From positions 28,296,307-28,360,306 of the forward strand of contig OZ316892.1 in the NCBI GenBank assembly GCA_973895155.1: a stretch of 64,000 nucleotides of DNA, given 5' to 3'. The stretch's first letter is position 1, and every line of letters begins with the position of its first letter. Below, piece after piece: positions 5,853 to 62,733 of the stretch. Source of the DNA: Marsupella aquatica. Its lineage: Eukaryota > Plantae > Marchantiophyta. The notes beneath the pieces are model-generated. The model saw nothing but the letters and a program-made list of their open reading frames with translations. It was not told the origin of the DNA and ran no database searches. A program made the translations under genes and the position numbers.

Positions 5853-5857
<5 letters not shown>

Positions 5858-5901
<44 letters not shown>
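5858..5901. repeat. (CT)n microsatellite
   Basis: About 22 uninterrupted TC units. Confidence 0.95.
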
Positions 5902-5904
<3 letters not shown>

Positions 5905-6208
5905 CTACGTGAAAACCAAGACAATACCATGACCTCATCACATCAGGGTAGGCCACATGACATGCACTATGACTGTAGACATACCCCCTATCACCTAACA
6001 CAGGGATACAGTTAAAATCCAGAATAAGCAGGCCCTGTAAACTACCCGATATAATCCTATGGCCACTAGAGCCATTGATTTATTCCCAACACATCTAGGC
6101 CACACAACACAAATAGATGGTAAAGCACATAACCTAAAATGCAGGCCAAGGTAGCGGTGCTACTAAGTCCAGCCATCCAGCCAATTGAAGATATACAAAG
6201 CTTAAATT

Positions 6209-6690
6209 TGTCGTGCGCATACACATCGCTACACAACATACTTCGCTTGTCAAATACATCCAGACATAGTCACATTGCCACATCACAAACACAAGATAGT
6301 GGAATACAAGTGGAACTCATGTCCACACATGATTGTCCAAAACCCACAATAATCTTCACAACAATCTGCACAACAATCATGGTCAACAATACCCCATCGA
6401 TCCCGCACCGATACGATCACACACATATGTCAAGCCAACGCACCTTGCACTACTCAAGGAATCCACGTTGTACAAGTGGAGCTCACAGCCACCATAGACA
6501 CACTCAAGCTCCTCTCTCCGACCAACTAAGGCTCAACATTGAAAGATAACCTTTCAATGCCTCACAAGAGAGAATTACCCTCTCACACAAACCTAACGGA
6601 ACCTTATCGGCTCATATAAAACACATACCAAACATACAGATCTAGATAGTACAATACACTCTAACACTACCTAGAATGGTGTCAGTGACA
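6209..6690 (-). mobile_element. 482-bp non-coding derivative (solo-LTR-like) of the Gypsy-DNMT element
   Basis: 6209-6350 matches 30112-30249 and 6350-6690 matches ~38186-38515. Ends TGTCG...GTGACA. TSD AATT at 6205-6208 and 6691-6694. Confidence 0.9.
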
Positions 6691-20563: not shown

Positions 20564-21930
20564 CATTTCCGCACACAATTGATATCCGTGGCTATGGGTA
20601 GGTACTAAGATCGTTGCTTTGTACCAAATGGTCTACTACGACAGAAGTTGGGCCTCCAACTTTGTACATCGACTATTTTCAGGTTTAACTCTGTCTGTAC
20701 AGGCCTACAAAAGAATTCGGCTTTCCTTCACTCTTAATTGTCTTCGGAAAATCCAGAGACTGCATTTGTCATTCTCATGGCACCCAGACAGAGTGACATC
20801 AGCACAATCCAAATTCTAGCCGAGAGATGAACGTGGGCAGTGTTCATTCAGACTTTTCTGGTACATAAGTAGCTCCGAATTGAAAGAAATCCATACTTCA
20901 TGGACGTCTACAGTAGTCCAGGGAATGACCATACGATTCACACAATTAGCCGATTTGCCGCCAGCGGAAATAAGAGAGAAGGATAGAGAGGGGACTGTAC
21001 AGATGCTGTTGCTCGGCAACAAACACCTCAGCGAAGCTCCCATAATTGACGAACCCACAAACGGGGTCACCCACCTCCACTCTAGTCACCTTCTCTCCAA
21101 TCTCCGTCACAATTCCCGAAAAACCCCCCCGGGAACGAATGGCAGCTTGGGCTTCTCTTGATAGAGGCCCTGCAGCGTCAGCACGGTGGAGAAATTCACA
21201 CTCCTGGCCTTAACCTGTACTCTCACGGATGTGGGCGTTGCAAGCACGGGTCGGGGCCATGATGTCTCCTCAACTGGACACCTCTCGTCCGACAGAGGAA
21301 GCCTCGGATTGCCCAGCTTTCTCACAACCAGAGCTCGAATTGTTTCTCCACCTATCTCTATTAAATGGTTACAGATCTCGCACCTCTTGTTGAAAAATTT
21401 TCAACTTCTCCTTACTACAGTCAAGCTCGAATCGGCTCTCAGCTCATGAGTTTCTAATGTTGGCAGATTTGGTGAGGACACGCAGAGCAGAGCAGAGCAA
21501 AATGCAGCTCAGATTGAAGGAATCTGCTGGAGGACTGAATGAAAGTCCCAACGGCGAAAAGCACGAGGTTTGGTGCTGAGGTGGACACTTACTTGGATTC
21601 AAAACGTTAAACCACCACTGCCAGTATAGCAGCCTTTCTGGTAAACGTGTAGAGTAACCCATGGTTTATGTATAGGGTAACCACGGTTTGGTTTGGGGTT
21701 ACTCTTGACCAGAAAGTGAGTAAATACTATCCCGTAATCCTGTGACCAGAAAGTGAGGAAATGCTGCCCGGCTGCAGGCGAGAATCTTTTCTGAGCTTAG
21801 TGGGAACAGGTTTGAGACTAGAACTCCAACCCAAACAGTCATTATCACAGGTGATACCTGTCTGGACAAAAAACTACCAGGTAAGACTTTTCGGGTACAT
21901 GGTTATGGAAATGATAGCACCTAGTGGAAA
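20564..21930. repeat. Duplicate of 1-281 joined to 3884-~4900 (segmental duplication copy B)
   Basis: catttccgcacacaattgatatccg at 1 and at 20564; junction TGTTCA at 20841-20846. Confidence 0.95.
21001..21355 (-). pseudogene. Quinone oxidoreductase-like pseudogene, exon 1 only
   Basis: Near-identical to 4046-4401, but ATG became ATA, there is a 1-bp deletion near 21123, and exons 2-6 are deleted. Confidence 0.93.
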
Positions 21931-23688
21931 AGGTTACACACTGGTAACAGGAATTACAGGATGTAAAATTGGTAGCAGGCCCAAATGGTGTTTATGGGAT
22001 GTAAAATGGGTGGTGAGCCCACATGGGATTTATGGGGATGTAATCTGGAGGGAGGCAAGCTTGAGGAGGTTAGAGCCATGGTCCTAGAGCATCCATGGAT
22101 GAACAAGCTGAGCCCATGTGTAGTTTTAATCTATTTATAACCTGAAAAGTGTGCCTGAAATTGGATAACCCTCCTGGCGGGTTAGACAAGGGGGCTGAAA
22201 TCTCATAACCCCCGCTGGTAGTTGGGCAATGGCTCACTAACACCCTAGCAATACAAAGAAAAAGGGACACTAGGGGTCTATGCACATTAAAAGGCAACAC
22301 CTGGTGTATTGTGTCACGGGCTCACAAGACTGCTCACAAGAGTAAAACTTTTTGTGAGCAGTCTTGTGAGCAGTCTTGTCTTTACTCTACTAGAATTTTG
22401 CATGAGTTTATCAGAAAATGTACAAATGTAAACTTAATTAGGGGTTTTGCAAATATAAAGTTGTTGTTTCGTGAATGATTCCAGGCCTGTTTGCACTTAG
22501 AAAAGGTGCAAAAAAAATTGCAAACTAGGTCAAGTTAAGAGAAGACATAATTCCTTGCACTCGTAGATTTTGCACACAAAGAGTAAACTGTAGTGTGGCG
22601 TTGGGCAAGAATTTAGGAAGGATGAAAGGGTAAACATTAGATTCTGTTTTATTTTTAATTTAAATTGTATTTTTTTATTTTCAAAATAACAACATCCCAT
22701 TGAAACTAAAGCCCGGATGGACCTCCACTTTGTCTATGAAGCCCAGGCAGATGGATCGGCAAAGCTTGGATGGACTTGCTCAGAACATTTAAACTGACTC
22801 AGATAACACTATTTACACTTTTGATTGAAATGCAACCTGTAAACTGTCTCCTTACCGTTTGTAGCCGGTTTCAATTGCATTACCAAATTGGTTTTCTCGG
22901 AAATCTGACAACTTGACGACCTTGAACCTGAAAGATGTCAAGACGTCATGCCATTACTCAGGATCACCATGACATCTTAACTACTTTCTCCCCAAGGTTG
23001 TCAAAGTTGTGAACTGTGATCTACAACCGGTTCTTTAAATTTCTTGTTTTTTTTTAAACACCAATCCCTTTACGCAGTCCATGGGGATGGGCAGGGATGT
23101 TGTTTCGGCCCATCTGGGCTTTTGTTTCACATTCCATTTGTAGATCTCACTGAAGAGAGCTATTGTATGATGCAAGCTCAAACAGGAATTTTAGGAGACT
23201 CTTGCTAGCGAGCCACTAATGTTTTATTTTTATTTTTGCACAGTCACTCTTTCATATTTGTAGTGCATTCTTAAGACTCCAAATGGCTAGCTGCTAGTTT
23301 GCTAGCCAAAAGAGTCCCCAAATTGGATTTTAATACTAACCAGGTTTTGGTTAGCTAGGGAGTAGCTTTGCTAGGGTAGTGGGGTTTTTTACTCATAACC
23401 GTAAGGTTTTTACCATTTTACTTTTTTTAAAAGTCAGAGCATTCTGGAACCCACACACAACACCCAGGGGGACAAGAAAAGCTTCAGGCAAGAGCCAGAA
23501 GTCAGACCCAACCCAACAGCAAAAACAAACCAACTAATTAGACCTCCTGGCTTGGGGGTCTCACTACATAGAGGCCTCCCATCACCTACGATGTTTTTAA
23601 GCCCTGCACCCCATAAAATGTTAAAAAAAAATGTTTTTCAAACCCTATAAAGTTAGAATATTCTTGGAATGGATTTTTTTGTGAAGGA

Positions 23689-26140
23689 ATGTGTGATGGA
23701 GCTCACGGGGAGCCTGGCGATGGCGCTCCCTTAGGGATGCGCCGTGGCTGGAAACTGTGGGATTCGAGAGAGGAAAGGATGCATGTGGAGATGAGCGCTG
23801 ACCAGGGTACCAACCAGAAGATGAGATCCGCAAACAGCAGGGCAAACAGAAATGGGAGGAGGGATTTAGCTAGGAGAGAAAGCAATCAAACGACTGACAT
23901 GGAGATCCAATCGCCACGCGACACTAATCAAGGGGACAGACCCTTGTCCTCGAAAGACCAAAACTCGAGTATGGAAGATAGCACAGCAATAGTGCAAGGA
24001 GTGGGCGCCAAAAGAATCGATCAAGGATGGCCCTTGCAAGAGATCACTCTGACAAACAGGAACATCACCACACTGAACAGAGGATCACGGAACAACGAAG
24101 GAAATGGCAAGGGGGGCAGTGTGATTGAATCGAGGCTTCAGAACTCTGACATTGCTCCAGGGCAACTCACGAGCAGCTGGCAGCCAGGTACGAACAGGGA
24201 GCCACAGAGCATTAAACTTGGGAAGGAGCTCCCTGCACCTCTACTGCAAGGGGCGGTACGGGAAAAGGGGACCAGAGGCAAGATACACGCAGCTGAAACA
24301 ACAAACCCTGAGGGCAGCAACAAAGAAGGTAGAGAGTGTCGTGGAATCGGTGGAGGGACCCAAGGTGGGGGACGAATTGAATACCAACATGGGAGTGCGG
24401 ACCCACACACTGTTGCAGGGGATGATGGAGACCAGGGAAGGTCTGGAAATTTTGGGTTCCTGGACCCCGCCTGGGATCCGGAAGAGGATGACGACGCTGG
24501 GTGCTATCCAGAGGATGACGAAGAGGAGAACCCCTACAATGACAACTTGGATAAGGAGGCCGGTATGCACGTCTCTAATGAAGACTTGAGGGAGCAGCTT
24601 GCGCACTTACCACAAGTGCCAGAGAAGCCATCGCCAGGGATGAGGTCAGAAACCTTGATAGGTGATAAGAACATAGTTGCTAGCCATATTTTGCACTTAC
24701 AAAATCGAGGGATTACTGTCTACACTGTGGATTTTAATCCCTCGAGGGATTTTTTTGAAGAGTGGGTCCACGATGTCATAGGACGGAAAATGCGGATCCG
24801 CATTGAGCAGATCAAAGTACTTTCAAGGTACACTTTTCTGATTGTGGTATCTACACCTGAGGAGAAAAATGTGATCCTGCTGGAACCGTACCTCAGCATG
24901 GGTAGAAGAATGGTCATTGCCATGCCATGGACTGCGGATTTTGATGCAAAGGCTATGAGATCCACTAGGGGGCCAGTATGGGTTGATCTGCCGCTCCTCA
25001 ACCCCGCGTTCAAATACTATGCCAACCAGATGCTTGCTAAAGTTGGCAAGGTACTCTACGCTTAGACTACCAATGCTAGAAGTAAATTCTCACATATCCG
25101 TGGTTGTGTCCTGTGTGACCTCAATTCTGATCTTGTGGAATATATAGATATGACCATTCCAGGTGTGGGCAACTATAGAGTTGATGTCATCTATCGTACC
25201 CTGCCAGATGCCTGCTTCGCTTGTAAACAAAGAGGGCACATAGCACGTTACTGCACAAACAAGAGCAACATGGAGAAAGGGAACGACCAACCACAACATG
25301 CTAAGGGGGCAGGCAGACAACCAGGAAATAAAGGGAACACGCAAGAGAAAGTGGACGCTGAAGGATTCACATTGGTCCACAGCAGAACTCAGAACAAAAA
25401 CCCAAACAGAGTGGCCGTGGCGACCGCTTACCAAGATGTAGGCAGCAACCCTTTCGGTGCCTTAGCTGTGCTCACTGACCTTGAAGAGGGGGAGATTGAA
25501 CCAGCGCAACAGGTGCTAGATGTAGCCACAGGGCAAGATCACCCAAACCAAACGTGTGATCAGGAAAGGGGGGATCTTGATCAGCAGGCTCTTATTGAGG
25601 AGAACAGGGATTCCGGGGAAGCAGCGAAACTAGAGGATACGACCCCAATTGACAAATGGAACTACGAGTTTGCTGGAACTTGGCAATGCCACTCACCCAG
25701 TAGTAGCAGAAGAAGCAGACCACATGGAGACTGAGATGGTCAAGAATGCTAGGAAAGCCGCTACTTCCCCTACCACGGGTTGGGGAGGTAGAAACGGAGC
25801 CTCTCCAACCAAGGCTGAGACACCAGCAAGACAGCAAACTAAAAAGACGAAGAAGAGTTTACAACCATCAGGGATTCCTACCTTCGCGAGTGATAGGAGT
25901 ATGGCGGATGTCCTTCCTGAAGAAATCCCTTACAATGACACCCAGAGAGCGGGGGGAACGGAACCACGTAAGCTCAGGTTTGACCAGAGCTCACAGAACT
26001 CCACCATTGATGCAAGCAGGAAGAATCAAAGGGGAGCTCCAGAGATCATCCGAAAAGGGAAGGAACTTCAAGCAACCACAGGGGAGGAGGGGAGCCAGCA
26101 AAACGGGACCCAGGTCCCACAAACCAACACCCATTTATGA
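23689..26140 (+). pseudogene. LINE ORF1 (DUF4283-like RNA-binding region plus CCHC zinc knuckle), disrupted
   Basis: IKVLSRYTFLI...MPWTADF...PVWVDLP, CFACKQRGHIARYC; in-frame TAG at 25063 and a frameshift near 25650. Confidence 0.85.
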
Positions 26141-29100
26141 TGACAAAAGAACTTACCATTTGCCAGTGGAATGTTCGGGGGATGGGCAACCCGGTGAGAC
26201 ACAAACAGATGAGTACATGGATGCAAAACAACTTGATGGATCAATCGATCTGTTGCTTCAGGAGTTGAAGATCAATGAAGAGAGAGCGCTTTTCCAGCTG
26301 AGACTAATAGATATGGAAGGCACTAAAATCCTGGATAGCAATTCAGAAGGGAAAGTGGGAGCGGCGCTGTTGATCCCAAAGCAACACCAAATCTTGGACC
26401 AGGGATGTAAAGGAGACGGGACCTTTGCGTGGGCTACTATCCATACCTGTGTGGGGGAACTCAGTGTGGGCTCAGTATATGCTCCCAATGTACGTAGGAA
26501 TCGGATTGAGCTTTGGAAATGGCTTCTAGAAAACCTTAAGGAGTCCAATTGGATTCTCAGTGGAGATTGGAATATGACAGACCTATGGGACGATGCTCTA
26601 GGTCCATGGCGCTGAGGCCCGGGCCTGGAACAAACTGGTGGACCACCTGGATTTGGTGGATAACTATCTGTGTGCTGGAACGCGGAAGGGACCCTATTAC
26701 ACGAGACAAGCAAGGAAGTCGGACCATTATGACCAGTCGAGAATTGACCGCTGCTATAGCAGCAATAGGAACCAGTGGTGTGAGTTTGTGAAATCCTGTG
26801 TGCAAGATGGTAGGGAAACGATCTCAGACCACATTCCCATTGCCACTACTTTTGCTCTCAAGCACAACCCGGAGATTGACACTCACAAGAAGGCAACCTT
26901 TTTCAAAATGGATGCGAATCTTTTCGACACCGTTGAACTAGAAGGTGAAATGGAGAGAGTGTGGAAGGAGCAGCAGAAGGAGAATAGGGACCCCAGAATT
27001 AATTGGGATTTGGCTTGGGGGCGGTAAAATTGCTGAATCAAATTGAGAAGCGCAAAAGAGCAGATATCCGAAATGCTAGGCAGCCAGGGGATGAGCTACT
27101 CCGGCTGAGAGTGGAGACGTGCACCAATCCCACTCCAGCCCTTTCGGATGAACTCAGGAAAGTAGAAGACAGCACTAGGGAGAGGGCCAAAGCAGACGCA
27201 ATCAAGATGAGACAGAAAAGCAGAGTTCGGTGGCTGAAACTTGGTGAAGCCCCAACCAAGTATTTCTTTAACCAATTGAAGGCTAAACATGCAAAGGAGA
27301 GCATCAAACGGCTGAAGAAAGATGATGGGGAGATCATTGAGGACAACACACAAATCCTTCAGGAGATCCATAAGTTCTACTCGAACCTGTACACGGCTGA
27401 CCCACAGGTTGAAACCAATGCGGAAGCCTTGGAAGAGGTCTTGGGACTCATCAAAGAAGGGGTTTCGCTACAAGAGAACCAGGCTATCACTAAAACTCCT
27501 AGCAAAGTGGAAATTGAGAAGATGGTGTTCAACCTACCTAAGGAGAAATCACTAGGGCTGGACGGGGTCACTGCAGAGATGTTGATGAAGGGATGGGACT
27601 TCATGAAGACAGCCTACACAAAAATGATTCAAACTTTCTGGCAGGATGGGAAGCTTACTACCCGGGCCACCGCTGGAGTGATCAAACTGATTCCGAAGAA
27701 TCTAGAGGTACTGGAACTCAGCAATTGGAGACCTTTGACAATGCTCACTCTGACAGAAAAACTGGTGGCTAAGATAATGGCGAATCGGATCAAGAAGGTA
27801 GCACACAAATTGATTGATCCGCAACAGTTTGGATTCCTGGAAGGATGGGACATTCTTGACAACCTCTTGAACGTCAAGTTGGGGCAAGAGTATGCTACAA
27901 CCAGTAAACAACCCCTGATCTTTCTTAAACTGGATTTTGCTAAAGCATACGACGGAGTGGCTCATTCCTTCCCGTGGGCTGTCATGAGGGCGATGAAATT
28001 TGATGAGCAAGTGATCACTCTGGTGAAAGGGCTGGTGGAGCACACCCAGTCTAAGGTTCACATCAACGGGAGATTCACTGAATCGATCCAGTTGAACAGA
28101 GGGGTGAGGCAAGGCTGCCCCCTATCCCCACTCCTTTTTGCTCTTACCACCCAGCCACTGATGGCGCTTTGCAAGAGTAAGATTGAGACGGGAGAGCTGA
28201 ACGGTTTGCAGCTGCCTGACAATAAGAGCCTCTGCCACCAACTCTTTGTTGATGACACGGGGTTGTTTCTGGCGGCCACTGAGGGGGATTTCCAGATGGC
28301 TAGAAAGATTGTACAACAATATGAGAACAGCTCTGGCGCATTGCTAAACATACAGAAATCTAAGATTATTCCTATCTACTTCCCCGACGGAGTTTACCTA
28401 GGCTGGTTGACTGCTACGGGATGCAAAATCGCCAAGGAAGGAGAGTTGACTGAATACTTGGACAGCCCAATTGGTTACAAGGTGCGGCCGTCTCATGAAG
28501 TTGCCTTTCTGGTTGGTAGATTGAGAAGCCGGCTGTGCCATTGGACCCACAGGAGCCTATCTATGGCTGGCAGAGCGATCCTTCTCAAGCACGTTCTTCG
28601 CGCTATTCCCACATATACTTGATGCCGTTGGCTCTGCACAAGATGGGTTTTTTGGAGATGGAAAAAGTCTGCCGTCGGTTCCTGTGGGGGTCTACTACCA
28701 CCGAAGGAACCAAGAAAGCGCTCATTGCGTGGAATGTGATTACCAGACCCAAGGAGGAGGGTGGCTTGGGAATACAGCCCTTCGAGGAGCATTCTCAGTC
28801 TCTGAAAATGCGACATATTTCCAAACTGATTACTTAGGCGGAGTGTGAGTGGGTGCAAATTGCACAAGAGATCATCGTAAAGGGGCTGAAGATTGGACCG
28901 GGGAAGAAAGAGAGACGCCACTAGACAGCAACTGAAGCATTTCTTTTGGCTGACAACATTCACATTCAGGGTTCACCAACGCTGAGAGGTCTCCTCCAGG
29001 GATATATGGACATCCAAGAGTCACCACCTCCAATTTAACTTTGGAGAAGGACAGATCCCAAGCCACCTCTCCATCGAACAAACCATTTTACTTTACCTAT

Positions 29101-30045
29101 GGACCAGCATTGCCACAGCACAACAGGGAACTGACCTGAGAAGATTCCTGGCCAACCGTGGCATCAAGCACCTGATGAATCTCAGGACTCCTCAAGGTGA
29201 ATGGGTGAATGAGAAGGAGCTCAGTTCGCGACTCCGAAGTACCCGCTCTATTGGGAATCTGGAATTTACCAGGTTTTACAACAAGCTTCGACAGAGCACT
29301 ATCACTGACACGGGACTTCAGGAGTGCGGGGGTTGGCAGTGGGACTGGAGTGGACCCAATAAAGGTTGGAATTTCTCCACACGGATATGGAGCCACTGCT
29401 CGAGGGAGCCTCATCTGGACGTGACCCAGCTGAATCGTAGATGGGGACAAGCCCACACCCCCAGTGGATGGAATCACTACTGGAAAACTATGGGGAGGTT
29501 GGTCTTTTCCCAAGGTGAGATTCTTTCTTTGGAGGCTGTTAAACCATGGTTTTTTTACGAATGGCAGGGCAAGCCATTGGGAGGTCACGGACGGCACTTG
29601 CACTCGTTGCAAGAGTCATTTCGAACACACCAAACATTTGTTCTTTAGCTGTAGGACTGTCACTGATAGATGGAGGGAGGTCCAACAACTGGTCCAGCAG
29701 GCTGATGCCCTCAAGACGTTGCAAGGTACATTGTACGAAGCTATCTCGACTGCTTTGAAGATGCACAAAAGGAAACCAGGACCTATGGTCATGCTCATGG
29801 AGATTTGTTCGAGCATTTGGAAGGAGAGAAATGCTGCCACCTACTCTAGGTTCCTAGGGCGACTTCCCGGCTGGGTTGTGCTGAGGAAGACTGAAACTCA
29901 CCTTCTCACTATGTTGGATGTCTGCCATTCGGAGAGAAAACGGAAACAGCTAAGGCGGGCCCTGACTCAACTCCAGGTTATACTTAAGCCCTGGGAGACT
30001 AACGTCAGCCCGGTCGCCCTGAATGTGGAAGATGATGAAGGGTAA
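26137..30045 (+). pseudogene. LINE ORF2 (AP endonuclease, reverse transcriptase, zf-RVT), disrupted
   Basis: ATGA overlap with the ORF1 stop. QWNVRG, SVYAPN, GDWN, SRIDR, SDHIP (APE); WRPLTML, KLDFAKAYD, GVRQGCPLSPLLF, LFVDD (RT); CTRC...HLFFSC. Several stops and frameshifts. Confidence 0.92.
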
Positions 30046-30422
30046 GAATGTGGAAGAGGCGGGTCTAGTTCGCTGGATGGGGTACGGCGAGGGGATGAAA
30101 ATGTATGTTGGTGTCGTGCGCATACATATCGCTACACAATATACATCGCTTGTCACATACATCCAGACATAGTCACATTGCCACATCACAAATACAAGAG
30201 AATGGAATACAAGTGGAACTCATGTCCACACATGTCCAAAACCCACAATCGCCCCCCTAGCTGGGAGTAAGGTCCCCTAACTCTAGCTAGCCATGAGTTC
30301 TACAAGGTTGATATACACCTTTTTAGGTGTGAAGATCAGGAGGCCAGGTGCAAGTGAGCCCCATCGATCACCTACCTGCAATCCATATCTGCCAAGAGAA
30401 CACAAATGATAACTAGTCGGCT

Positions 30423-30870
30423 TCACCGACACTGAGGACACAACCATGATCCACTAGGAATCACCTGCAATGGTGGTGTCAAACATGACATGTGCCATCC
30501 TCTAGAACACTTATCACAAATCAACATAGTAGCTGCTCCCTGAGCAGATCCACACAACATACATTTCAAGCCAGCATGAACATGTGCCAAGCTTGGATCT
30601 ACTGTACCATCAATGTTGGGAAGGTGACATGGTGCACAGTTGCGCACATGATCCTTCCAAACCATACCATCGCGTCCCTCCAACATCAGGACACCAGAAG
30701 GCAACACTTCACGCACACGTAAGATTGTCCGGCCTGCGGTCACATCAAGTGTCGTGGGTGCTGTCTGCTGCAAATAAACATAATCACCAGGATGAAATCG
30801 TCGAATGCTTGCACGGTAACCTCCTCCACGAATAGTGGCATACCTCAAAGTATCACGATGTTGGGCACGA
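30423..30870 (-). pseudogene. Integrase C-terminal region plus PHD finger
   Basis: AQHRDTLRYA...RRFHPGDYVYL..., then C4HC3 motif CMLC...MLICDKCSRGWHMSCLTPPL...GSWLCPQC*. Confidence 0.88.
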
Positions 30871-32771
30871 TCACCAATACTGTGTCTGCAGCAAGCTGTA
30901 AGTGCGCTTCACACCAAAGTGACCCAACTCCTCGTGCGCATGTCGCACCAAATGTACTCGTTGTGATGGTTTTGGTACCACCAACATCCTACCATCATGC
31001 AGTACTCTCAAAAGATGGTTTCCCTCCCATCGAAATCTCTTGGCTCTCTGTAGAACCCTGTCACGTTCCTTGGCATCAACACTGCCAACAATAGAACCAC
31101 TGCGCAGATATTCCAACACTCTCACATCATTGTGAATATCTTGTTGTCCAGAAGTTACCTCACCAACATCCACATCTGAAGACTCATCACCCACTCCATC
31201 CAATGAAGTAGAGTCCACAGATCCACTGTATGCTGGCACCCAACAAAGAAAGGCAGATGCATGCCATCCTGGCACCATCTCCTTATCTGACTCATCATGC
31301 CATCTGGCTCCAGTCTCATCCTGCTGACTGGTACATGGATTGCGGCTTAATCCATCTGCATCCAAGTTCACTTTTCCAGGCCTATGCACCACCTGGAAAT
31401 CATACTCCTGTAACAACAATGCCCATCGTGCAAGCTTCCCTGTAAGCTTGTCAGACTCCATTAACCACTTAAGAGGCTGATGATCAGTGATCAAGGTGAA
31501 GGGGTTACCAAACAAGTAGCAACGAAAGTGTGCAACAGCCCACACTGCTGCCAAACACTCTCCCTCATAAGAGCTATACTTAGCCTCTGCTGAATTGTTT
31601 GATCTACTGGCATAAGCCACAACAAACTCATTCCCCTCATCATCCTTCTGAGTCAGCACTGCTCCAAGTCCTACTCCACTCCAATCGGTGTGTAGCTGAA
31701 ATGGTCTGCCTGAAATGGGTCTTCTCAAAATAGGGGATGATGCCATCCTTTGCTTCAACTCCTGAAAGGCATGCTCCTGGTCATCACCCCAAATCCATTC
31801 CTGATCCAACTTAGTGAGTATGGTCAAAGGTTTAGCAAGCTGGCTAAATCCTTTAACATACCTCCTGTAGTAGCTCGCCAATCCCAAGAATGCACGAACT
31901 CTACTCACATCAGTAGGACAAGGAATCTGTGTAATGGCCTCCACTTTAGTCTGCTGTACACCCAATCCCCCTGGGTATATGGTGTGGCCCAAATACTCAA
32001 TCTGGTCTTGGAAGAACTTACACTTGCTAGGATGGAGCTTCAACCCATGTGCTCTCAATCTCTCCAACACAGTCTGCAAGTGCTGCTGATGTTCTTCCAC
32101 AGTAGAAGAATAGACCAAAATATCATCAATATAACATCTGACAAAATCCAAACCTGCAAGGATTCGATCCATGACTCTCTCAACTGGGGCATTCTTCAAC
32201 CAAATGGTAAGAATAACCATTGATACAAACGATCTTTGCCATAAGAATCAATCCCCCAGAATGCTGTCTTGGACCTGTCAGCATGCCTAATTGGAAGCTG
32301 ATGGTATCCTACCCTCAGATCCAATGAACTGAAAACCTTTGCATGCCCCACAGCATCAAAGATCTCCTCAGGTGTGGGCATGGCATATCGATCAGATTTT
32401 GTCTGGCGATTAATAGGTCTGTAATCACCACACATGCGCCTATCTGTGTAATTGCCATGCACATCCTTCTTGGCTGGCATCACTGTGGCAGATGCATACT
32501 CCCCATATGAAATCTCCACCAATCCAGCCTCCAACAAATCTTGAGTTCTGCTTTGAATCAGAGCTCTCTCCATGTCACTATAACGGTATGGTCTACGAAA
32601 GATTGGCGCATCACTAGCCAATTCAATATGAATACCAGGGCCCTTCAATGTCCCCAAATCCTTCATGCTGAATGCAAAACAATTCCAATAACTCTTCAGG
32701 AATCGATGCATGCGATGTCTCTCCTCCCCTGTTAACTTATGGCCAAGCTGTGGTTTCCAACTCTCCACCAA
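30871..32771 (-). pseudogene. Ty3/Gypsy reverse transcriptase, RNase H and start of integrase zinc-binding domain
   Basis: RMCGDYRPIN, SLDLRVGYHQL, LPFG/LKNAP (1-bp frameshift near 32197), YIDD, LHTDWSGVGLGAVL, EGECLA, TDHQPL, DADGLSR, HEELGHFG. Confidence 0.93.
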
Positions 32772-33009
32772 ATCCCTAATATCTCTTTGTAGGGTAGAAG
32801 AGATAGCCGATGATTGCTATTTAGCAATAGATTGAGCAGTCCCTTCGTGCTCAACAATCTGTCCAGCCGCCAATCCTGTCATAGGTCCATGGACTGTCTG
32901 CTCGCCCCCAGCTATGGTCAATACTATCTCAGTGGACCGCAAGCTCACCAAGGGACAATCAGTAATTCCGGCAGAGCGCATCCGCAACTGTTCAGCTACT
33001 CCCAAGCTG

Positions 33010-33955
33010 ATAATCCAAGTCAAACAATTCAAATCCATTGCTTGACCAAGAACCTGGCGCCGCAAACCCTCTGACACAGAGGCAACTACAGTGGTGCCAG
33101 TCAAAAATCCCATAGCACGCTCTCTCTCATCAGTAGTAGGCTCCACTAACTGCTGGAGAGCTGTGTCCCATACAAGTCCAGGGCCACCTGCTCTGAATGC
33201 ATATGAAGCAGAGTGGCTTACAAGAGTGGGTAATGCACAACGTGGGCACCCAACTGCATTGACCATTGCCAATGGAGGTCTATCAGGTTGGGTCACACCC
33301 TGTGCACGACGCCCTGGATCCAAAATATCATCCACCACTAAGGCTGGTGAGCGTGGAATGCTGTCAAATGCACGCTTCAGCACCTCACATGGGATCAAAT
33401 TAGTCCACCATAAGCGTGGACGATGTGCACGAGAACCCACACGTGCAGCATCCAATAACACAGCAGGTCCAATCCAAGATCTCACCTGGTGAACACTGGC
33501 AACAATCCGACTACGATCATCACCTAACAATGGCACATTCTCCAAAATGTATGCTGGAGACTGTGTCTGATATAGCTGGAGGTGACGCAGCACCCGTAAC
33601 ATCTCCCAAAACAATGCAGAGCGTGGATCATGAAGTCCATGCCCAACGCCAGCTCTAGATTGGCCCTAACATGGCCAACCAGCAATCACCAAATCAATGG
33701 GGCCAACACGATGCAGATGATCCGCCCCCAGCAATGAAATATCAGCAGGTAGTGCATGCTGATAACCACGAACAGCATCCACTGGTAGCAACTGTAGATA
33801 TCTATCCACCAACATAGCCACATGTCGCAATGAGACCCTCCGTGCTGTCTCATCTGTCTCCACATACAAATAACGACGCATAGGAATTCCTGCCTGAAGA
33901 ACAGCAGCCAATCCAGTGCTAATCCCACCAAAAAGATCCAACAAACAAATACCCT
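33010..33955 (-). pseudogene. DNMT3-like C5-cytosine DNA methyltransferase domain within the polyprotein
   Basis: Motif I LDLFGGI, motif II YVETD, motif IV DLVIAGWPC*G (TAG at 33666-33668), motif VI ILENV, motif VIII AHRPRLWWTNL, motif IX ERERAMGF, motif X RRQVLGQAM, in canonical order. Confidence 0.9.
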
Positions 33956-34399
33956 CCGGTGGATATTGCCAAGCAATAGGAGTGGTATCCAATGGTGAAA
34001 GAGTCACAGGTCCATCTGCAAGAGACTGCTCTACTCCTGACTGTGGTGTAAAAGCATGACGCCATGCATCATGTACCAATCGTGCTACTGCCTGTGGCAA
34101 GGCTTGTGCAGTGCCCCACACTGGTGGCACAACACTGCCAATAGGTAACCCTCGCATGATGTGCTCCTCATGAGACTCCTCCAATGGTGGAACATCGGCT
34201 GCATGCGCATTACCCTCAATCAAATCATCAGGTCCAGCAATTACACCACTGAATGCTGCCAAAGACAATGGTGTGGATTTAGAGCCTCCCACAGGTCCAC
34301 TAAATCTCACTGGCAATTTGCTCAATCGAGCATCTCCTGACTGCCAATCAGGTCTATATGACACTGATTCCTCCCAAAAATCAAGAATAAATCCCATGG

Positions 34400-36805
34400 G
34401 TAGAGCACTGTACATCCCACCAACACATCATATGACTCTACCTTAGTCAGAATAGCTCGCGCCTGTATCTGTGAGCTATCTGTGGTATGACCTTCCTGAA
34501 TCCTCAAATCAAGTGGTCTCCTGGTGATATGCTGTGTAGGTGTAGGTCCCCCCAATGAAGTCTGAATGGGAAAGGGACAATCCTCCAAATTCTCTGGACG
34601 CAATCCCAATCCACGTATGGTAGACTTCCCCAACATCAAGGGCTGAGCACCAGTATCCAGTAACACTCTCTCTGGCTGGTATACTGCTCCAGAAGGCCCA
34701 ACTAATCGGAAGATACCACTCCGATTATCCAATGACACAACACTAGGTTTAAACCTAGTCCTCTCAAATGCAGGGCGTGCTGGTAAATCCACCAACCTCG
34801 CTGCTGCTGCATGCCATGTCTCACTAGTAGCAGTAGGTGGCATGGTCTTCACTGCATCAACACTGCAAGTTGCTTCTGCATGGGAAGCAACCACTGGAGT
34901 GTCCTCACAGAGTGTAGCTGCCAATCTGAACACTTCTGCAGGACCAACTCCCAAGTTCAGCATGTCTGTCGCTGAAAATAATGGGGTGCGTACTATGGCA
35001 GTAGCCGCCCCCAGCAAGGTACCTGTCATCCCTGCTGCATCACTACCTGATTCTGCCAACTTACCCACATCAGGGTTTGTCCGAACCGGGTTCATAGAGG
35101 TAGTCTGAACTGTCTCTGACAATGTAAAAGACTGAGGAAGCTTTGTCTGCCGACGTGCATCCCCCCTTTGTGGATCTAACTCCGCTACTGCTCCTCGGGG
35201 CTCAAGAGCTTTGGCTGCCCCACGTGTCAAAGCTGCTGATGCATCAATATGTGCAGTGCCACACATGAATCCCATGGTGGCAAGGTCTCCATCAGCTCCA
35301 TAAGATGTGGAAGGACCATGGGATGTGGAAGGTCCATAGGATGTAGATGCTCCATCACCAGAATTAGGTCTCACCTGGGAACTAGCCATGGCAGCTAGTT
35401 GTTGCTCCAATTGAGCAATCTTAGCATCCTTTGGATCTATGGTTACAGTAGGGGCAGCGTCACTTCCCTGTCTCCCTGCATGTGGCATGCCACGACCACG
35501 TCCACCACCTCTACCTCCTCCTCCTCTTCCCTGATCATGTGTACGGGATCCTCCTCTCCGTAACTCAGGGTGGAGTGAGAAACACCTATCCTTGGTGTGT
35601 CCAGGAGCTCCACAGTGATCACACTGTCATTGATCAGGCGCTGATGCTCCCCCTGATCCTCTATGATCTGGACAATATCTCTGTGCATGATCCCCACCAC
35701 AGGTCCAACATCCTGACTGCTGTCCAGCATAAGAGGGCACAGGTCTCTGGCTGGTAGACTCTCGTGCAGTAGGCTTCTCCCTCTGGCTCTTCCGTGCAGT
35801 AGGCTGTGGTGTGGATGTAGATGCAGCCTTTGGTGCTTCCTTGGCAAATCCGAAAGTCACCACCTTCTCATTCACCATATTGAGCTCAATGCGCTCAGAA
35901 AGGGTGAAAACAACTGCTAATGTGGGATCTGCATCCCTAAGCAGAGTGACATCTCTCACTCTGCGTCGCAATTCTCTGTCCAGAATTGCATACCAAAACT
36001 GGACTGCCTGAGCCTCTGTCACTCCCTTGGTGACAGTGATCAATCTGCGCATACGTGTGTATGCCTCACGTAGGCTCTCTCCAGTCTTGCGTTGGAACTC
36101 GTGAAGACCCTTCAACTTATCAGTTCTCACACCCTGATAGTTCTGCTTCAGTACCTCAAAGAATTCCACCACAGGATTAAATGCTGGCGCAACTCCAGTT
36201 CCTGTCACAATCACACCGGCAGGAGTAGTGGTGGATGCTGCTGGAGTGCTGCTGGTGGATGGTGTGCCACTCTGGCTAGTGCTGCTAGAAGAAGCAGCAG
36301 CTGTGGCAATTGGTTGGGCAGCCGCACTAGTGCCATAGGTGATGGACACGTAATTAGGCGACCAATGCTGCCTCCATGCCTCAATTTCAACCAAATGAGC
36401 CTTCCGAAACTCATGGTAGTCATCCATGGGTGGCCCCTCCAAATGCTGGAATAATCCCTTCCATGCCATGAAAGGGGTAAACAATGTGACATTACGCAAT
36501 GTTTGCATATCGCACCACGTATCAAACTCCTGGATGAAGTCATCCAGATCAATTGTGCCAACTGCACCAGAGTATCGTCGTGGGCCCTTTGTAGCCCCGT
36601 ACATCTCGTCCATATCCCACAACAAAGGTGCAACCACCTGATGATGAGGAGAACTGGTCATTGAGTCCTCATCAGAATCACTGTCTGAAGCTGCACTGCT
36701 GACTGCTACCAATGCCGCTGGCCGAAACTGTGCCCCACTCCGAGTGAAACCGGTCCATCGTCCATCGAGTAATCCAGCAGCACCAGAAGAATCCGTGGTG
36801 ACCAA
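34400..36805 (-). pseudogene. Gag (two CCHC knuckles) and aspartic protease of the Gypsy-type element
   Basis: FQRKTGESLREAYTRM, CWTCGGDHAQRYC, in-frame TGA at 35627, CDHCGAPGHTKDRC, RGG tract, VLLDTGAQP. A 1-bp frameshift near 34398 leads into the DNMT frame. Confidence 0.88.
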
Positions 36806-37359
36806 CCCTAACCTAATCTATGTGCTAACCCTAAGGGCAATCTATCCCTGTCAGCACCACAAGCACTCACCATGGTGTGTTGGGCATCACTCCAACATCA
36901 CCAAGAGAGAAATACACAGCACACTAGAATGTCCAGTTGCAAACTCGGATCACTCCTATGGAATCAAGCGCCCACACGAAACTAACATGGCGCATAAACA
37001 GGAAACATGTGTGAAGAGGATCCAGAAACAAGAATGGATACCATTCAACTCTCCACACAAAAGCAAATGCAAATCAATATGACAATGTGCATAAGGTTCA
37101 AGGAAGAGCCTTCATAATAGGCTTCACAATGGCACTCCAATGTTGTAGATGAGAACCAAGGCAAAATTGGTTCAATCTGTGAGTTTAGATGGACTCAGAA
37201 GTATCAAAAACCCTCAAACAGCCTCTGATTTGGCCTAGAATAGGCCTCTAAACAAACCGGGAAGTATATAAAGCCCCCTGGCGCTTGAATCTAAACAACA
37301 AGTTGTCAAAGCTTGTGTGTACACAAGGTGGGATGAGAACTTGCCAGTTAAGCGCTCGC

Positions 37360-37900
37360 GACCGGGAATAGCCCCGGGATGGGTGACCTCCTCGCGCTCG
37401 ACCTTGTGCCTCCCCTCGCGCTCACGGCCCGGAATAGCCCCGAGATGGGTGACCTCGACCTCGTGCCTGCCTGCGCTCGCGATGGGTGACTTCGCGCTCG
37501 CGGTTGGGAGCACTTTCGGGATGGGTGACCTCACGCGTCGCCTCGCGCGAGCACTTTCGGGATGGGTGACCTCGTGCGCCTCACACCTAACCCCAAAAAC
37601 GACTACTTCCTTCACGAAAAGCTCCCGAAAACTGTCGATTTCCTTCATGAAAAACGCAGCCCTTCCACAGAATTGGCAGCAGCTTGATTCAACACCCTTG
37701 ACCCTCGTTTCTTTCACTGAAATGATGATACCGTCGCACGGGGCATTGGCAGCTCCGTTCCTTCAGGAAAAGAGCCGTCGCTTCACCTGCGCCTTGCCAA
37801 CATCGTCCAACAATAGCCGGCAATCAGATCTGAAGCCCCACAGTAGCCGACAATCAGATCTGAAGCCTCACAGTAGCCGGCAATCGGATCTGGAGCCTCA
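37360..37900. repeat. Tandem repeats in the element's CpG-rich 5' region: GATGGGTGAC(C/T)TC x5 (37378-37573) and a 30-bp unit x3 (37811-37900)
   Basis: Repeats seen directly; TATA-like tatataaa at 37265-37272. Confidence 0.85.
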
Positions 37901-39274
37901 CGGATCGACTTCCACTGTCCAACATCTACTCAACATTCGCTTTCCTCCACGAATCATCAATCGACCTCCAAACTCAAAACTCCAACTCAAAACCTGTCAC
38001 CAATCACAGATCTGTACATCGATCGGGAAGCAGGCCGATCGGACAACAACGATACAGGTCAAGATACCAACAATCTGTTCGATAACAACACACGATCCGA
38101 GCTACCACGAACCGTCGACAACTCAATCAATCGAACTTCTGTCCGCACAGTTCGTACAACAGATTTCGAATGTGATCTTTCAATGTAATCTCCATACAAT
38201 CGGCACAACGATCTCGGTCAACAATACCCCATCGATCCCGCACCGATCCGATCACACACGTGTGTCAAGCCAACGCACCTTGCACTACTCAAGGAATCCA
38301 CGTTACACAAGCGGAGCTCACAGCCACCATAGCCACACTCAAGCTCCTCTCTCTCCAAGGCTCAACATTGAAAGATGACCTTTCAATGCCTCACAAGTGA
38401 GAAGTACCCTCTCACACAAACCTGACAGAACCTTATCGGCTCCAATAGCACTCATACCAAACGTACATACTCTAATAGCACGATATACTACTACACTACT
38501 CAGAATGGTGTGACATTGGCCGTGGCACCTGATGGGGAATGTTGCCCTTAGAAGCTGTAGCGCTACCAGAAGCCAGATGAGTAACCAGATGCATTGGTCT
38601 CCGAAGACTAAATACATGAACTTCATGATTAGTAAGGAGAATGTTAGGAGCATCCAGGATCATAAGCTTAGGAGTCACTTCAGGGACAAGCAGTACAGGA
38701 ATACGCCTGCCAGAATTTTTGTTGGTCCCACCTTCCGGTGGTGGTATCGGGCTCCCTGGCCTGATTAGCTGGGTGTCTTGGTGTGTGTTCTGGGGTGTTG
38801 GGCCCTTTTTGTCTTTCCCTTGCTCGGGTGGTTTTTGCCCCCTTGCCTGTTATTGATGGGCTCCTGCGCCCCCCTCCCCCCCCCCCCCAAAAAAAAAAGG
38901 ATATTCTTGCAATGTTTCAAAAAATTTATTAAACTGATCCTAATGTTCTTACAAGATTCCAAATTGGATTTAAAAGACCCTAAAGTTCTTCCACATAAAT
39001 TTCAAAGTATTCCCTTCAAACCAATAAAACTACCCTATTTGCCGATACTATGGAAGTGAAACTCTTGAGCCTCCTGGCCAGATCAACCACCAGGTGATAA
39101 GTAAAACAGGGTCCTTGTGGCCATCACTCCTATCTCTACACAACTAGTAGTGCTCAACCTATCCTGTCAATCCAAAAGAAATACTCTTTTGATTCTCATG
39201 CTACATCACTTGGTTATTGTTTTTACAGTCACTCATATAGTTGTTTTTCTTTGCCTTGCCTAAAATAATAAAAC

Positions 39275-39448
39275 ACCAAGGTCTTTTAAATTCAATTTTG
39301 AGACTTATAAGAACATTAGGGTCCTTTAATCAAATTTTTGGAATATTTCAATTTTTATTTTTTTTAATATCACATTTTAGGAGGTTTGAGGCCTAAAAAC
39401 ATCATAGATGATAGGGAAGTCTCCATCTCCACATAGTGAGCCCCCAAG
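39275..39448. mobile_element. Partial copy of the same MITE family
   Basis: ggtcttttaaattcaattttgagacttataagaacatt...atagtgagcccccaag matches the 3' two-thirds of 5400-5695. Confidence 0.75.
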
Positions 39449-40477: not shown

Positions 40478-41212
40478 CTAGTTTAGTCTAAGACACTTAT
40501 TTTCAATAGTTTTTTCAGAACATTTGATTGACACGCTCCTACAAGTTCCACGTGACATCCATAATATGGAAACTAAGGATGACGTATGCCTACAGTAGAT
40601 CTAAACTTACTTATATACAATCTCTGTAGAGCAAAGTCTTGTCCACAGTCATCTCTATTAAGAAACTCATTGCAAAAGTTGACTTACAATGGAATGCACG
40701 TCTTGTCCTAGTAAAGTTTCTCTATACATTTTGCAATTATGCCTAGGACTTTTGCAGCTGCATGTGTCGTATTATGTCAGTAAGACTTGTGTGACCTCAT
40801 CATTGTTAAAACTGTTGAAAGGGGTGGTTTCGCAAACACAAGGAGAAGTCATTATAGAAGCATGGATGAATGAAGCCTCTATCCAACATTCCCCCTTTCT
40901 CAGGGGTTTCACTTCCACGACAATGGCACATCACATGCAACAAATGATAGGATTGTTTTATTGGTTTTAAGCGAAGACTTTAAAATTGTTTGCACAAGAA
41001 CAATAAGGTCTTTAAATTCAATTTTGAGACTTATAAGAACATTAAGGTCTTTTAACCAGAATTTTAGAATATTCCAAGAATATTCTAACTTTATAGGGTT
41101 TAAAAATTAACAAAATATTACATTTCAGGGGGTTCGAGACCTAAAAATATCGCAGGTGATGGGAAGGTCTCCATATAGTGAGACCCTCGAGCCCCCCTTG
41201 TGTCTTTTTTTC
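40478..41212 (-). pseudogene. Relic of the SET gene last exon (copy B), interrupted by a MITE
   Basis: 40478-40898 aligns to ~13490-13895 (ctaaga(t/c)acttattttcaatagtt, gcatggatgaa). Confidence 0.85.
40899..41191. mobile_element. MITE copy with 8-bp TSD
   Basis: TIRs CTCAGGGGTTTCACT and AGTGAGACCCTCGAG; flanks CCCCCTTT and CCCCCCTT (7/8). Confidence 0.85.
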
Positions 41213-41259
41213 ATGTATCACTCTTCTTAAATCAATAAACATCCTAAAAATTAAATCAA

Positions 41260-41489
41260 TAAAGTATTTTAGATAAAAATTTTAACCCCTAATTAACTTA
41301 AAGGACTATTCTTGGAATATTTTCTTATTTTTTTGTAAAAAACCCTATGATTTTTATAATTCTCAAAATTGGATTAAAACAACCCTAATGTTCTTCAATA
41401 AAAATTTAACAATTTTCACTAAATCCAATAAAAAACCCTATACTTATTTGCGCATGATGGGTTGGAAGAAAAGAAGTGAGGACCCTGAG
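41260..41489. mobile_element. Diverged MITE copy, reverse orientation
   Basis: tctcaaaattggattaaaacaaccctaatgttcttc...gaagtgaggaccctgag. Confidence 0.6.
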
Positions 41490-42269
41490 ATCTTAATATC
41501 GTTGTACTTAATAGGCAATATTTGATAGTGGACCCCTCCAAGAAGCAAAGGCAGTCTATAGGGTCAAGTTAAATTATGACTAATTTGACGGGTAGACTAG
41601 AGTGGTTAAACATACTTCCCAAAACCTTAATTTAAGGTAGGGAAATGGGACATATTCCTCATTATTTTACTATATTTACAACAAACTACCATAAGTGCCC
41701 CACTTCAATTGTGTGTCAACACCTGAAGGTACATGAACTTGTTGCATCAACGGTTGGGCTGGTTTTGAGTTGTATGTATAATTCAAGAAGCTAACTATGA
41801 GTTTCCTTAATATAAATGATAGGGGTGGATATAACATTCCCCTAAGAGCATCTCCATAAATGCACTATTTGCAATCCAATACCCAGATAAAGAGTGAGGT
41901 GTACATCGTAGAGTTGTATCAGTGGCAACAGGATATCCTCACCTGAAACAGTATTGGGGAAGATTGCCTGTAGGCCAAGATAATGTTGCAAAGCTCAATG
42001 AATGTATCAATGACCATCAATGTGTCTAATATTTGTGAGTCGTTATTGTCTGTAAGATATATAAAGTGAATATGAGCAAGCAACGCTAGCTAGCTGGAGC
42101 TCAAACTCATCGGATGTGGCAAGCATGAGCCCACATTTGGTGGCTTGGGAAGCAATTTTTAATATTTCTACAGGCCAGTGGGGATACCAATGAATATCCT
42201 TTTAGCAAGCACTTCTTGCTAAAAGCATCTCTACCAGGCATTCCCTACGACGGGTGGCCTAAACTTCAA

Positions 42270-43840
42270 CTCAACTAAATTTCAGCCAATAATGCTCTAC
42301 AATAGCCTCTTCCAAGTTTAGCTTATTAAAGTTCAGTCTGGGGTTCAGCTGATAATGCTCTAGCATACCTTCTACCGTTTAGCTGACTAAATTTTAGCCA
42401 CTAATGCTCTAGGACACCCTTTATTAGCTTTAGGTAACTAAAGTTTGGCCAATAATGCTCTAATTTAGCCTCTGCTAAGTTTAGCTGGCTAGGATTGAGT
42501 CAGATAACAAAGACACAAAACAAGGGTAAAGAACTAGGAAACATCACTGACACACAAACTTAGTCACAAAGAGAGAGACAATGAAGGTGTCTCTGAAAGT
42601 GTCTCAGGACAAGCATTCCACCCAACAGGTGGGAATGTTCTAAAAACCAGGCTTGTGACCAAACATAAGTGGTCACAATAGACTGAACAATATGGTTTTG
42701 ACAATGCAATATACAATACCATTCAAATACATTTTGTGCCCATTTCCTAATAGAAGAATGACAATACTTTTTAGGGGTGGCCACTTTTACTCAACTAAAA
42801 AGTTTAGCCAATATTGCTCTAGAATGGCCTCTACTAAGGCTTCTTAAACCTCCCCAACCAGGCCTTTTTCTAGCAACCAAAATTGTGAGGAAGGGCCAAG
42901 AGAGAGAATGACACGGGTGGGTCAAGTGACCGTTCCCGCAAAACCCAAGTGAGAGCAGACCGGGGTCCAGTGTAGGTTCACTCCCGGATCAACCTTAACT
43001 TTAATACTAAGTTTAGTTAACTAAACTTGAGCCAATCCCAGAGAGTCATGGTTGTTTGGTACACTAACTTGTGTTAGACTCATAGGTCTAGTGTATAAAT
43101 GTTATTACTGACTGCTCCCTTTCAGATTTCCCCATTTTGAATAATTTAATTTAATTTAATTTAATTTAATTTAATTTAATTTAATTTAACTTAATTTAAT
43201 TTAATTTAATTTAATTTTAAAAAAAAGTTGAGCCAACAATGCTCTAGTAGTGTAGCCTCTACTAAGTTTAGCTGGCTAGGGTTGAGCTTCAACAACACAT
43301 AAAACTGGGGCAAACATAACATCACCGACACAGAGAGAGAGAAAAATAGAGAGAGACTGGAAACACACTATTTGGCTTGTCGGTCAGAAGCTATGGAGTC
43401 TTCTTCCACAAAGTAATGTTAACACACTTCCACTTCTTCTATTCCTCTCCTCTCCTCCATGGAAACATCCATGGCCGGAGCTGGAATCCAAATAGCGATT
43501 TCCCCATTTTAAATTAATTAAATTTAAGTTGAGCCAACAATGCTCTAGTATAGCCTCTACTAAGTTTAGCTGGCTAGGGTTGAGCTTCAACAACACATGA
43601 AACTGGGGCAAACGAAACATCACCGACACAGAGAGAGAGACAGAAAACACGGCATTTGGCTTGTCGGTCGGCTTTGGAAGCTATGGAGTCTTTTTCCATA
43701 GAGTGAAGTTGGCTTTGGAAGCTATGGAGTCTTCTTCCATACAGTAAAGTTACACACCTCCACTTCTTCTATTCCCTCTCTTCTCCTCTCCTCTCCTCTC
43801 CTTCATGGAAACATCCATGGACGGAGCACGAATCCAAATC
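42270..43840. repeat. Repeat cluster upstream of the IST1-like gene: recurring gccaa(t/c)aatgctcta...gcctctactaagtttagctggctagg motif, (TTTAA)n at 43143-43220, and a ~280-bp direct repeat (43227-43500 vs 43528-43840)
   Basis: Repeats seen directly. Confidence 0.8.
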
Positions 43841-62730: not shown

Positions 62731-62733
62731 CCG

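Follow-up and report, generated by a model that had tools for sequence, protein, structure and literature searches.

A dead Gypsy element with two unlike ends in Marsupella aquatica, and its probable origin in a lineage whose long terminal repeat is split at a palindrome

The window analysed here is a stretch of 64,000 nucleotides of Marsupella aquatica (Marchantiophyta; assembly GCA_973895155.1, contig OZ316892.1, positions 28,296,307 to 28,360,306). It contains two related insertions, both read on the minus strand: a Gypsy-type element of 8404 bp, running from 38515 to 30112, and one of 482 bp, running from 6690 to 6209. The larger has the layout A-coding-B, where A and B are its end segments, and the smaller the layout A-B. 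Both are cleanly bounded by TGTC and GACA and by their own 4-bp target site duplications (TSDs), as claimed in the original prediction: the larger reads CCAA-TGTC…GACA-CCAA (TTGG on the plus strand), the smaller AATT-TGTC…GACA-AATT. Their features are given below with the basis of each assignment; long terminal repeat is abbreviated to LTR and reverse transcriptase to RT.

38516..38519 (+): TSD copy TTGG at the 5' end of the element (TSD comparison)
38187..38515 (-): segment A, 329 bp, starting with TGTC; putatively the LTR's second part, with promoter, R and U5, a role suggested by the position of the primer-binding site (PBS)
38388-38380 (-): inverted arm CATTGAAAG, preceding the predicted self-primer
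38365..38379 (-): predicted self-primer GTCATCTTTCAATGT; antisense to the PBS at 14/16 bases, a match that 0/300 shuffles attained, and paired with it in the minimum free energy (MFE) fold
38172..38186 (-): predicted PBS ACATTGAAAGATCAC, directly after A, not of the TGG type used by transfer RNA (tRNA) (complementarity)
37352..37901 (-): short tandem repeats in a long 5' untranslated region (repeat analysis)
35627..36817 (-): Gag region, weak Retrotrans_gag match, with an in-frame stop at 35629-35627 (Pfam)
34529..34675 (-): aspartic protease core LLDTGA, with a frameshift near 34397 (Pfam, alignment of relatives)
32997..34001 (-): C5 DNA methyltransferase, Dnmt3-like, with an in-frame stop at 33668-33666 (Pfam, alignment of relatives)
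32811..32819 (-): TAG CAA TCA, conserved in frame at the border of methyltransferase and RT; probable stop of programmed readthrough
30874..32816 (-): RT, RNase H and integrase zinc finger, with a frameshift near 32200 (Pfam, alignment of relatives)
30867..30873 (-): site of a copy-specific deletion in the integrase core (residues 649-892 of relative P0004 missing)
30423..30866 (-): C-terminal part of the integrase and PHD finger (PHD E 7.9e-12)
30250..30258 (-): polypurine tract (PPT) AGGGGGGCG; the motif precedes B in 7 relatives too
30112..30249 (-): segment B, of 138 bp, starting directly after the PPT and ending with CGCACGACA; putative first part of U3
30108..30111 (+): TSD copy TTGG at the 3' end of the element (TSD comparison)
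6205..6208 and 6691-6694 (+): the two copies of TSD AATT of the 482-bp element (TSD comparison)
6351..6690 (-): A part of the 482-bp element, a likely permuted solo LTR; 87% identity to full A (alignment)
6209..6350 (-): B part of the 482-bp element; 92% identity to full B (alignment)
23617..30045 (+): decayed L1-type long interspersed element, outside the Gypsy insertion, which its 3' region adjoins; given for context (domain matches)

No terminal repeat was found in the 8404 bp by self-BLAST (word 7, E<=1), and when the first 1500 bases were aligned locally with the last 700, the scores were 24 in direct and 23 in inverted orientation, where 50 shuffles gave means of 22.8 and 20.9 and maxima of 30 and 29. 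No repeat is common to A and B, and the inverted match at the termini is of 4 bp only. The lack of a direct repeat between the ends, already stated in the original prediction, was thus upheld: the 8.4-kb element has the TG…CA termini and a TSD within the 4-6 bp of Ty3/Gypsy elements, and does not have whole direct LTRs at both ends. The 3' segment had been placed correctly after a PPT, though as 136 bp starting at 30247; it starts at 30249, directly 3' of the tract, and measures 138 bp. The 482-bp element had rightly been described as the two ends joined, being composed of bases 5-330 of the full element followed by its last 138 bases, with a 1-base overlap. The join is not a chance microhomology, because it falls exactly on the PBS border of A and on the PPT border of B. 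The same joint (30248 to 38186, A/B) was present in contigs of 4/4 runs. In the window's family, the reverse joint (38515 to 30112, B/A, with 2 letters between) was found in run X2, one of the four runs, among the matches listed. Both borders between the 8.4-kb element and its flanks are bridged by contigs.

Comparison with Pfam assigned to the 8.4-kb element weak Gag and protease matches, a C5 DNA methyltransferase, RT, RNase H, an integrase zinc finger and a PHD finger. The order Gag-protease-RT-RNase H-integrase and the Ty3-type RT are those of Ty3/Gypsy elements, and the best PDB matches of relative P0019 are Ty3 Gag-Pol and Ty3 RT. A chromodomain on the integrase is absent, the PHD finger standing in its place. 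The methyltransferase domain of the intact relative L105 has DNMT3A/B/C as best PDB matches (E about 2e-8). In the distant relative L101 a methyltransferase is located between RNase H and integrase (5824-6810), not before RT. The closest named homologs are from Marchantia polymorpha (75%, 65%), followed by proteins of Klebsormidium nitens and Closterium. The 8.4-kb copy is dead: to the stops and frameshifts listed above, a further stop (30873-30871) and the loss of the integrase core must be added. The original prediction had overlooked this loss, as well as the methyltransferase, the PHD finger and the self-priming site. The latter deletion is specific to this copy, because at 30867 other copies, in contigs of runs X1, X2 and X3, run on into further sequence.

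The stop at 32819-32817 is likely not damage. The pattern TAR-CAR-YY occurs at the border between methyltransferase and RT in 37/44 loci (36 in frame; strict CAR-YYA in 6), including L105, L013, L014, L015 and the L049 family, and is reached after 1162 open codons in L105 and 1369 in L013. Three near relatives are one base off the motif, and the four distant loci L101-L104 are without it. The window stop fits the readthrough consensus UAG-CAR-YYA, as given in passages of PMC3159437, and likely marks programmed readthrough, by which more methyltransferase than RT and integrase would be produced. Copies of the L049 family have an ATG 6 nt downstream of the stop, and reinitiation is an alternative to readthrough there.

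Relatives were collected by a metagenome scan, which yielded 71 loci, 38 of them with A or B of one well-sampled family. L034, L038 and L042 were dropped as duplicates of one insertion, and the sets L047/L048, L050-L052 and L059/L060 were counted once each. Loci with a truncated B (L011, L020, L056) or at a contig end (L023), together with a probable chimera (L008), were dropped from the counts, and L061-L070, distant RT elements of 27-33% identity, were left out of them. Loci L101-L106 lie on contigs filed in prokaryote genome bins, and are likely eukaryotic DNA.

After this clean-up, 9/23 distinct 3' ends read B-A(-B) and 14/23 read B-flank, while B precedes A in 0/15 distinct 5' ends (Fisher p=0.006). 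Ten relatives have both ends in view. A perfect 4-bp TSD was found in seven of them, five with the layout A-coding-B and two with A-coding-B-A-B; among the others two TSDs agree at 3/4 bases and one at 2/4, and a 5-bp TSD occurs in none of the ten. Ordinary LTRs, or a whole A-B unit at both ends, which would have meant ordinary LTRs, were likewise seen in 0/10. The same analysis detected ordinary TG…CA LTRs and a TGG primer site in the control L107, a Gypsy element outside the clade. The order A-coding-B-A-B was observed in L049 and L004, and split repeats A1-B1-A2-B2 in L049, L004 and L033. Within an element A1/A2 and B1/B2 diverge alike, mostly by transitions (26/338 and 8/115 in L049). These end structures support the suggestion of a split LTR with non-standard integration contained in the original prediction. 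Its other suggestion, a family lacking LTRs, conflicts with the B-A-B ends and with the presence of a PPT and a primer site at LTR-type positions. Searches of viral contigs returned no members of the clade: one was empty, one gave 29 motif matches with 0 tblastn matches to the element proteins, and one gave other Gypsy-like and pararetrovirus-like contigs.

Tabulation of the B/A junctions revealed a 2-nt spacer in 15/15, between …ACA-type and TGT-type halves. The spacer reads GC in 8 cases, AC in 4, GT in 2 and AT in 1, the last three being forms that C>T or G>A decay could make out of GC. The undecayed junction is the palindrome GACAGCTGTC (GACA-GC-TGTC), and the termini of the elements are its two halves minus the spacer. 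Families that otherwise look unlike one another in A and B (L013, L015, L105, L106) retain it, and it is also found in the distant L102, with a polyprotein that shares about 38-48% identity with the queries; contig L101 stops within it, at CACGACAGCTG. The sequence GACAGATGTC in L103/L104 was considered as a junction and rejected, as it lies inside an open reading frame (ORF).

The other borders of A and B are those of priming sites. B starts at the base A next to the G-run PPT in seven relatives and in the window, and the 12-16 bases following segment A are complementary to a stretch inside it. A TATA-like box is found about 30 nt above this stretch in L049-type loci, L013 and L105; the box is degenerate in the window. 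The match is 14/16 in the window and 16/16 in both L049 and L013, each above all 300 shuffles, and 13/13 in L105. Primer and PBS sequences differ among families yet stay complementary, and in L033 the two sides have changed together. A PPT before the 3' LTR and a primer site after the 5' LTR part, as in Ty3/Gypsy elements, are therefore present, the site being of the self-primer rather than the tRNA type. In the MFE fold the primer stretch pairs with the PBS. A hairpin (38388-38365 in the window, and likewise in A of L049, L013 and L105) has the predicted self-primer as its 3' arm and a copy of the PBS as its 5' arm. This 5' arm would be missing from the transcript start but present in A2, where, speculatively, it could mask the second primer copy. 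In 4/15 A1 copies (L004, L005, L010, L039) differing deletions extend across the primer hairpin, as opposed to 0/9 A2 copies; in L004 only A1 is affected.

Since B starts after the PPT and A ends at the primer site, the LTR made by reverse transcription would be B-A, and the linear complementary DNA (cDNA) B-A-coding-B-A. The A/B joint would therefore be the join of two cDNA ends. In the L049 family A2/B2 joints are exact in 6/8 cases, L007 having an additional G, and L004 an additional CG and a 17-nt insert similar to nearby A sequence. The extra bases at the L007 and L004 joints match the end of the PPT, and such bases are the expected marks of end-joined cDNA ends; the A/B joint of L106 is one base short.

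On these grounds the 8.4-kb element is probably a dead one-repeat copy of a Gypsy lineage with Dnmt3 and PHD domains, in which the LTR is split at a palindrome likely used by the integrase, and the 482-bp element would be a permuted solo LTR. The two ends are unlike because the end repeat of the family is split at this conserved palindrome, and neither window form is likely to replicate, both having probably arisen as by-products from longer parents.

The layout A1-coding-B1-A2-B2, which some relatives show together with a 4-bp TSD, would be the replicating form. Its transcription may start inside A1, so that the first 12-15 nt of the transcript could pair with the site 3' of A1 and prime the minus strand in a Tf1-like manner; the complementarity of the two sites is observed, and priming is what it suggests. 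With the plus strand primed at the PPT before B1, reverse transcription would yield B-A-coding-B-A. Because insertions have A (TGTC) at their start and B (GACA) at their end, the integrase would cut the internal junction, GACA^GC^TGTC, after CA on both strands, dropping the 2-nt spacer and making the 4-bp TSD. The true cDNA ends, i.e. the end of A and the start of B, would be end-joined before or after insertion, giving the A/B joint. A cut at the upstream junction only would result in A-coding-B-A-B. The form A-coding-B may derive from a circle with one LTR that is opened at the palindrome, from a cut at both junctions, or from later recombination between B1 and B2; direct insertion and later recombination are held to be about equally probable. 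The A-B form would most simply arise by recombination between A1 and A2. As A-coding-B has no second A, it lacks terminal redundancy and a template for the promoter part of A, and would be a dead end; A-coding-B-A-B, the sole observed form with a second A, could be copied again.

The wider proposal is that the lineage, an old one of green plants, moved its attachment sites from the cDNA ends to the palindrome inside U3, so that circles and end-rejoined molecules became normal substrates and one-LTR circles insert directly as A-coding-B, the readthrough stop packing the methyltransferase at Gag-like levels. It is put forward tentatively, at just under an even chance.

A phylogenetic tree of the RT-RNase H region (134 sequences, 421 columns, FastTree) joined the window element with Marchantia P0006/P0007, P0001 and the L049 family (0.995), in a group of 24 members (0.988). 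Larger groups around it hold K. nitens P0029, P0058 and P0103 (0.81), and the methyltransferase-bearing K. nitens P0054 is located further out, with weak support.

Several results weigh against the interpretation as a split LTR. The relatives are short-read contigs, possibly chimeric at repeats: L008 looks chimeric, and L048 is without a matching TSD. In the window's own subfamily both A/B and B/A joints occur in contigs, without an end-to-end A-coding-B-A-B copy. All 300 shuffles are beaten by only 6/17 primer/PBS pairs, 4 of the missing pairs having the primer region deleted in A1, and the fold of the whole 221-nt region is no better than that of shuffles (z -0.61). The A/B joint of the L049 family is also readable as CA-GT-TG, and may represent vestigial terminal attachment sites; the window family has no CA there. 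The node uniting all palindrome-bearing loci (96 sequences, 62 of them PHD-labelled) has a support of 0.54, and the depth of the palindrome trait is therefore judged from L101 and L102, not from the tree. Finally, random opening of a two-LTR circle should also produce A-B-A-coding-B, the form missing from all 15 distinct 5' ends; as we propose, the upstream LTR may be the first to turn double-stranded, following the second strand transfer.

That A-B-A-coding-B is missing poses no difficulty if the family inserts only as A-coding-B-A-B, and the window forms arise later, by recombination between B1 and B2 to A-coding-B and between A1 and A2 to A-B. This history, a serious possibility if a somewhat doubtful one, agrees with the cut at the palindrome and departs from the preferred reading solely by denying direct insertion of one-LTR molecules. 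Formation of solo LTRs by recombination between repeats is established and routine in LTR elements. The terminal branches of B-A-B copies are also slightly shorter (mean 0.047 vs 0.059), and L106, whose B1 and B2 are 100% identical over 106 bp, is one of them. The age difference is however not significant (p=0.14; other proxies p at least 0.14; 9 B-A-B vs 13 B loci, L008 being still included in the test), and A-coding-B is the commoner form (14/23 3' ends, 5/7 copies with perfect TSDs), though B offers only about 115 bp of homology. L007/L008, the sole pair that might have caught a recombination event between two B copies, was rejected because the 3' flanks differ.

The remaining explanations depart further from the split LTR. 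An autonomous LTR-less retroelement, or a Ginger-like cut-and-paste element with the 482-bp unit as a MITE-like (miniature inverted-repeat transposable element) deletion derivative, would account for the frequency of A-coding-B among relatives, and TGT…ACA ends, 4-bp TSDs and a PHD finger occur in Ginger too (passages of PMC2836005). It is nonetheless improbable. Passages of the same paper report terminal inverted repeats of 40-270 bp (Ginger1) or 50-180 bp (Ginger2) and no RT/RNase H, as opposed to a terminal match of 4 bp, retained RT and RNase H, and a conserved PPT and primer site here. The A/B joint falls on the two priming borders also inside A-coding-B-A-B copies, a transcript starting inside A could regain the 5' part of that segment only from a second A, and B-A-B copies exist. 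The element is not a Ginger, does not move by cut-and-paste, and does not belong to an autonomous LTR-less family, contrary to what the original prediction had allowed for. Very improbable is a route as in PAT, Ngaro and VIPER, with a circle from non-LTR replication recombined into the target: the order A1-B1-A2-B2 is identical (passages of PMC4157794 and PMC6681497), and the same comparison was made by de Mendoza et al. (passages of PMC5890265), but no tyrosine recombinase was found in the 10 ORFs of at least 120 aa of the intact L105, which has an rve integrase, and perfect 4-bp TSDs and TG…CA ends indicate a DDE integrase. An ordinary element, each LTR of which lost a different half in the 8.4-kb copy, or an assembly artefact, is hardly credible: the copy is old and has other deletions, but five independent relatives share its end structure with perfect TSDs, none has whole LTRs at both ends, and contigs span both borders of the locus with its flanks.

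Among known systems the nearest is KnitGypsy-Dnmt3 of K. nitens, which has Gypsy domains and, according to a figure legend, DIRS-like repeats in the order A-coding-B-A-B (de Mendoza et al. 2018, passages of PMC5890265). Like it, the window element combines a Gypsy Pol with a C5 methyltransferase of the Dnmt3 type, encoded in the polyprotein region, and K. nitens P0054 aligns over protease, methyltransferase, RT and integrase. The methyltransferase is there part of the Pol ORF (same passages), fused to RT in P0054, whereas the window subclade has a conserved stop between. The passages of PMC5890265 describe neither a TSD nor a palindrome at the junction, and are likewise silent on how priming occurs, on forms with one repeat, on solo forms and on a mechanism, with 0 matches for 'target site' and 'PHD', and the part of its supplement text that was searched gave no match for the palindrome. 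Elements of the Tf1/sushi and Tcn1 type likewise have no tRNA primer site, and carry 3' of the LTR part a site whose complement is found within that part; they are however chromoviruses with ordinary flanking LTRs (passages of PMC6317226), unlike the window lineage with its PHD finger, methyltransferase and permuted LTRs. The words 'PHD' and 'methyltransferase' do not occur in the main text of that survey (Neumann et al. 2019). PAT/Toc/Kangaroo, Ngaro and VIPER share the repeat order and use a tyrosine recombinase, in contrast to the DDE integrase and 4-bp TSDs of the window lineage. Ginger1 and Ginger2/Tdd share TGT ends, 4-bp TSD, a Gypsy-like integrase and, in one family, a PHD finger. The name KnitGypsy was found in the literature search in PMC5890265 only, and titles and abstract openings yielded no description of the palindrome, of the priming, of one-repeat and solo forms or of a mechanism (subscription papers, Repbase, figures and bioRxiv supplements may differ). 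Going by these sources, the repeat order is already in print once.

The cleavage of palindromic LTR-LTR circle junctions has reportedly been studied also for HIV-1 integrase. A precedent for the proposed cut is the foamy virus enzyme, which in vitro severs such a junction on each strand after CA (passages of PMC1180852). The likeness lies in the CA-NN-TG palindrome, cut after CA on both strands to integration-ready ends; the difference is that in these viruses the palindrome arises only on joining of the cDNA ends, whereas here it stands inside the LTR, and its use is apparently the normal route.

Elsewhere in the window, repeats at 88-98% identity were detected at 1-281, 3960-4641 and 20564-21590, and also at 7684-8334 and 22442-22934. 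An AT-rich MITE-like family with inverted arms is present in both orientations (5399-5696, 23550-23670, 38885-39444, 40947-41406), and degenerate short-repeat clusters lie at 42254-43585 and 58778-59474, the second with a period near 190-197 bp. On the plus strand, a long ORF at 10844-12328 has F-box and kelch-type propeller matches, and a 677-codon low-complexity ORF at 46849-48882 has no Pfam match, its last residues presumably recalling an IST1-type C-terminus. The beginning of a gag of Copia type, together with a 9-bp tandem array, occupies 62695-63604 (+).

Integration of LTR elements is taught as the processing of the two ends of a linear cDNA. Whether LTR circles are true precursors is an old question of retrovirology, approached by in vitro cuts and drug-reversal experiments, and here a natural lineage appears to insert solely through an internal palindrome. 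The palindrome GACAGCTGTC offers a short, defined substrate, and the lineage a DDE-integrase parallel to the split repeats of PAT and Ngaro. Its commonest form has no terminal repeat, so that it would be missed by programs searching for LTR pairs and cannot be dated from such pairs, and its solo LTRs resemble MITEs. If the palindrome is indeed the normal attachment site, circles, which are dead ends for other LTR elements, would become normal substrates in this lineage.

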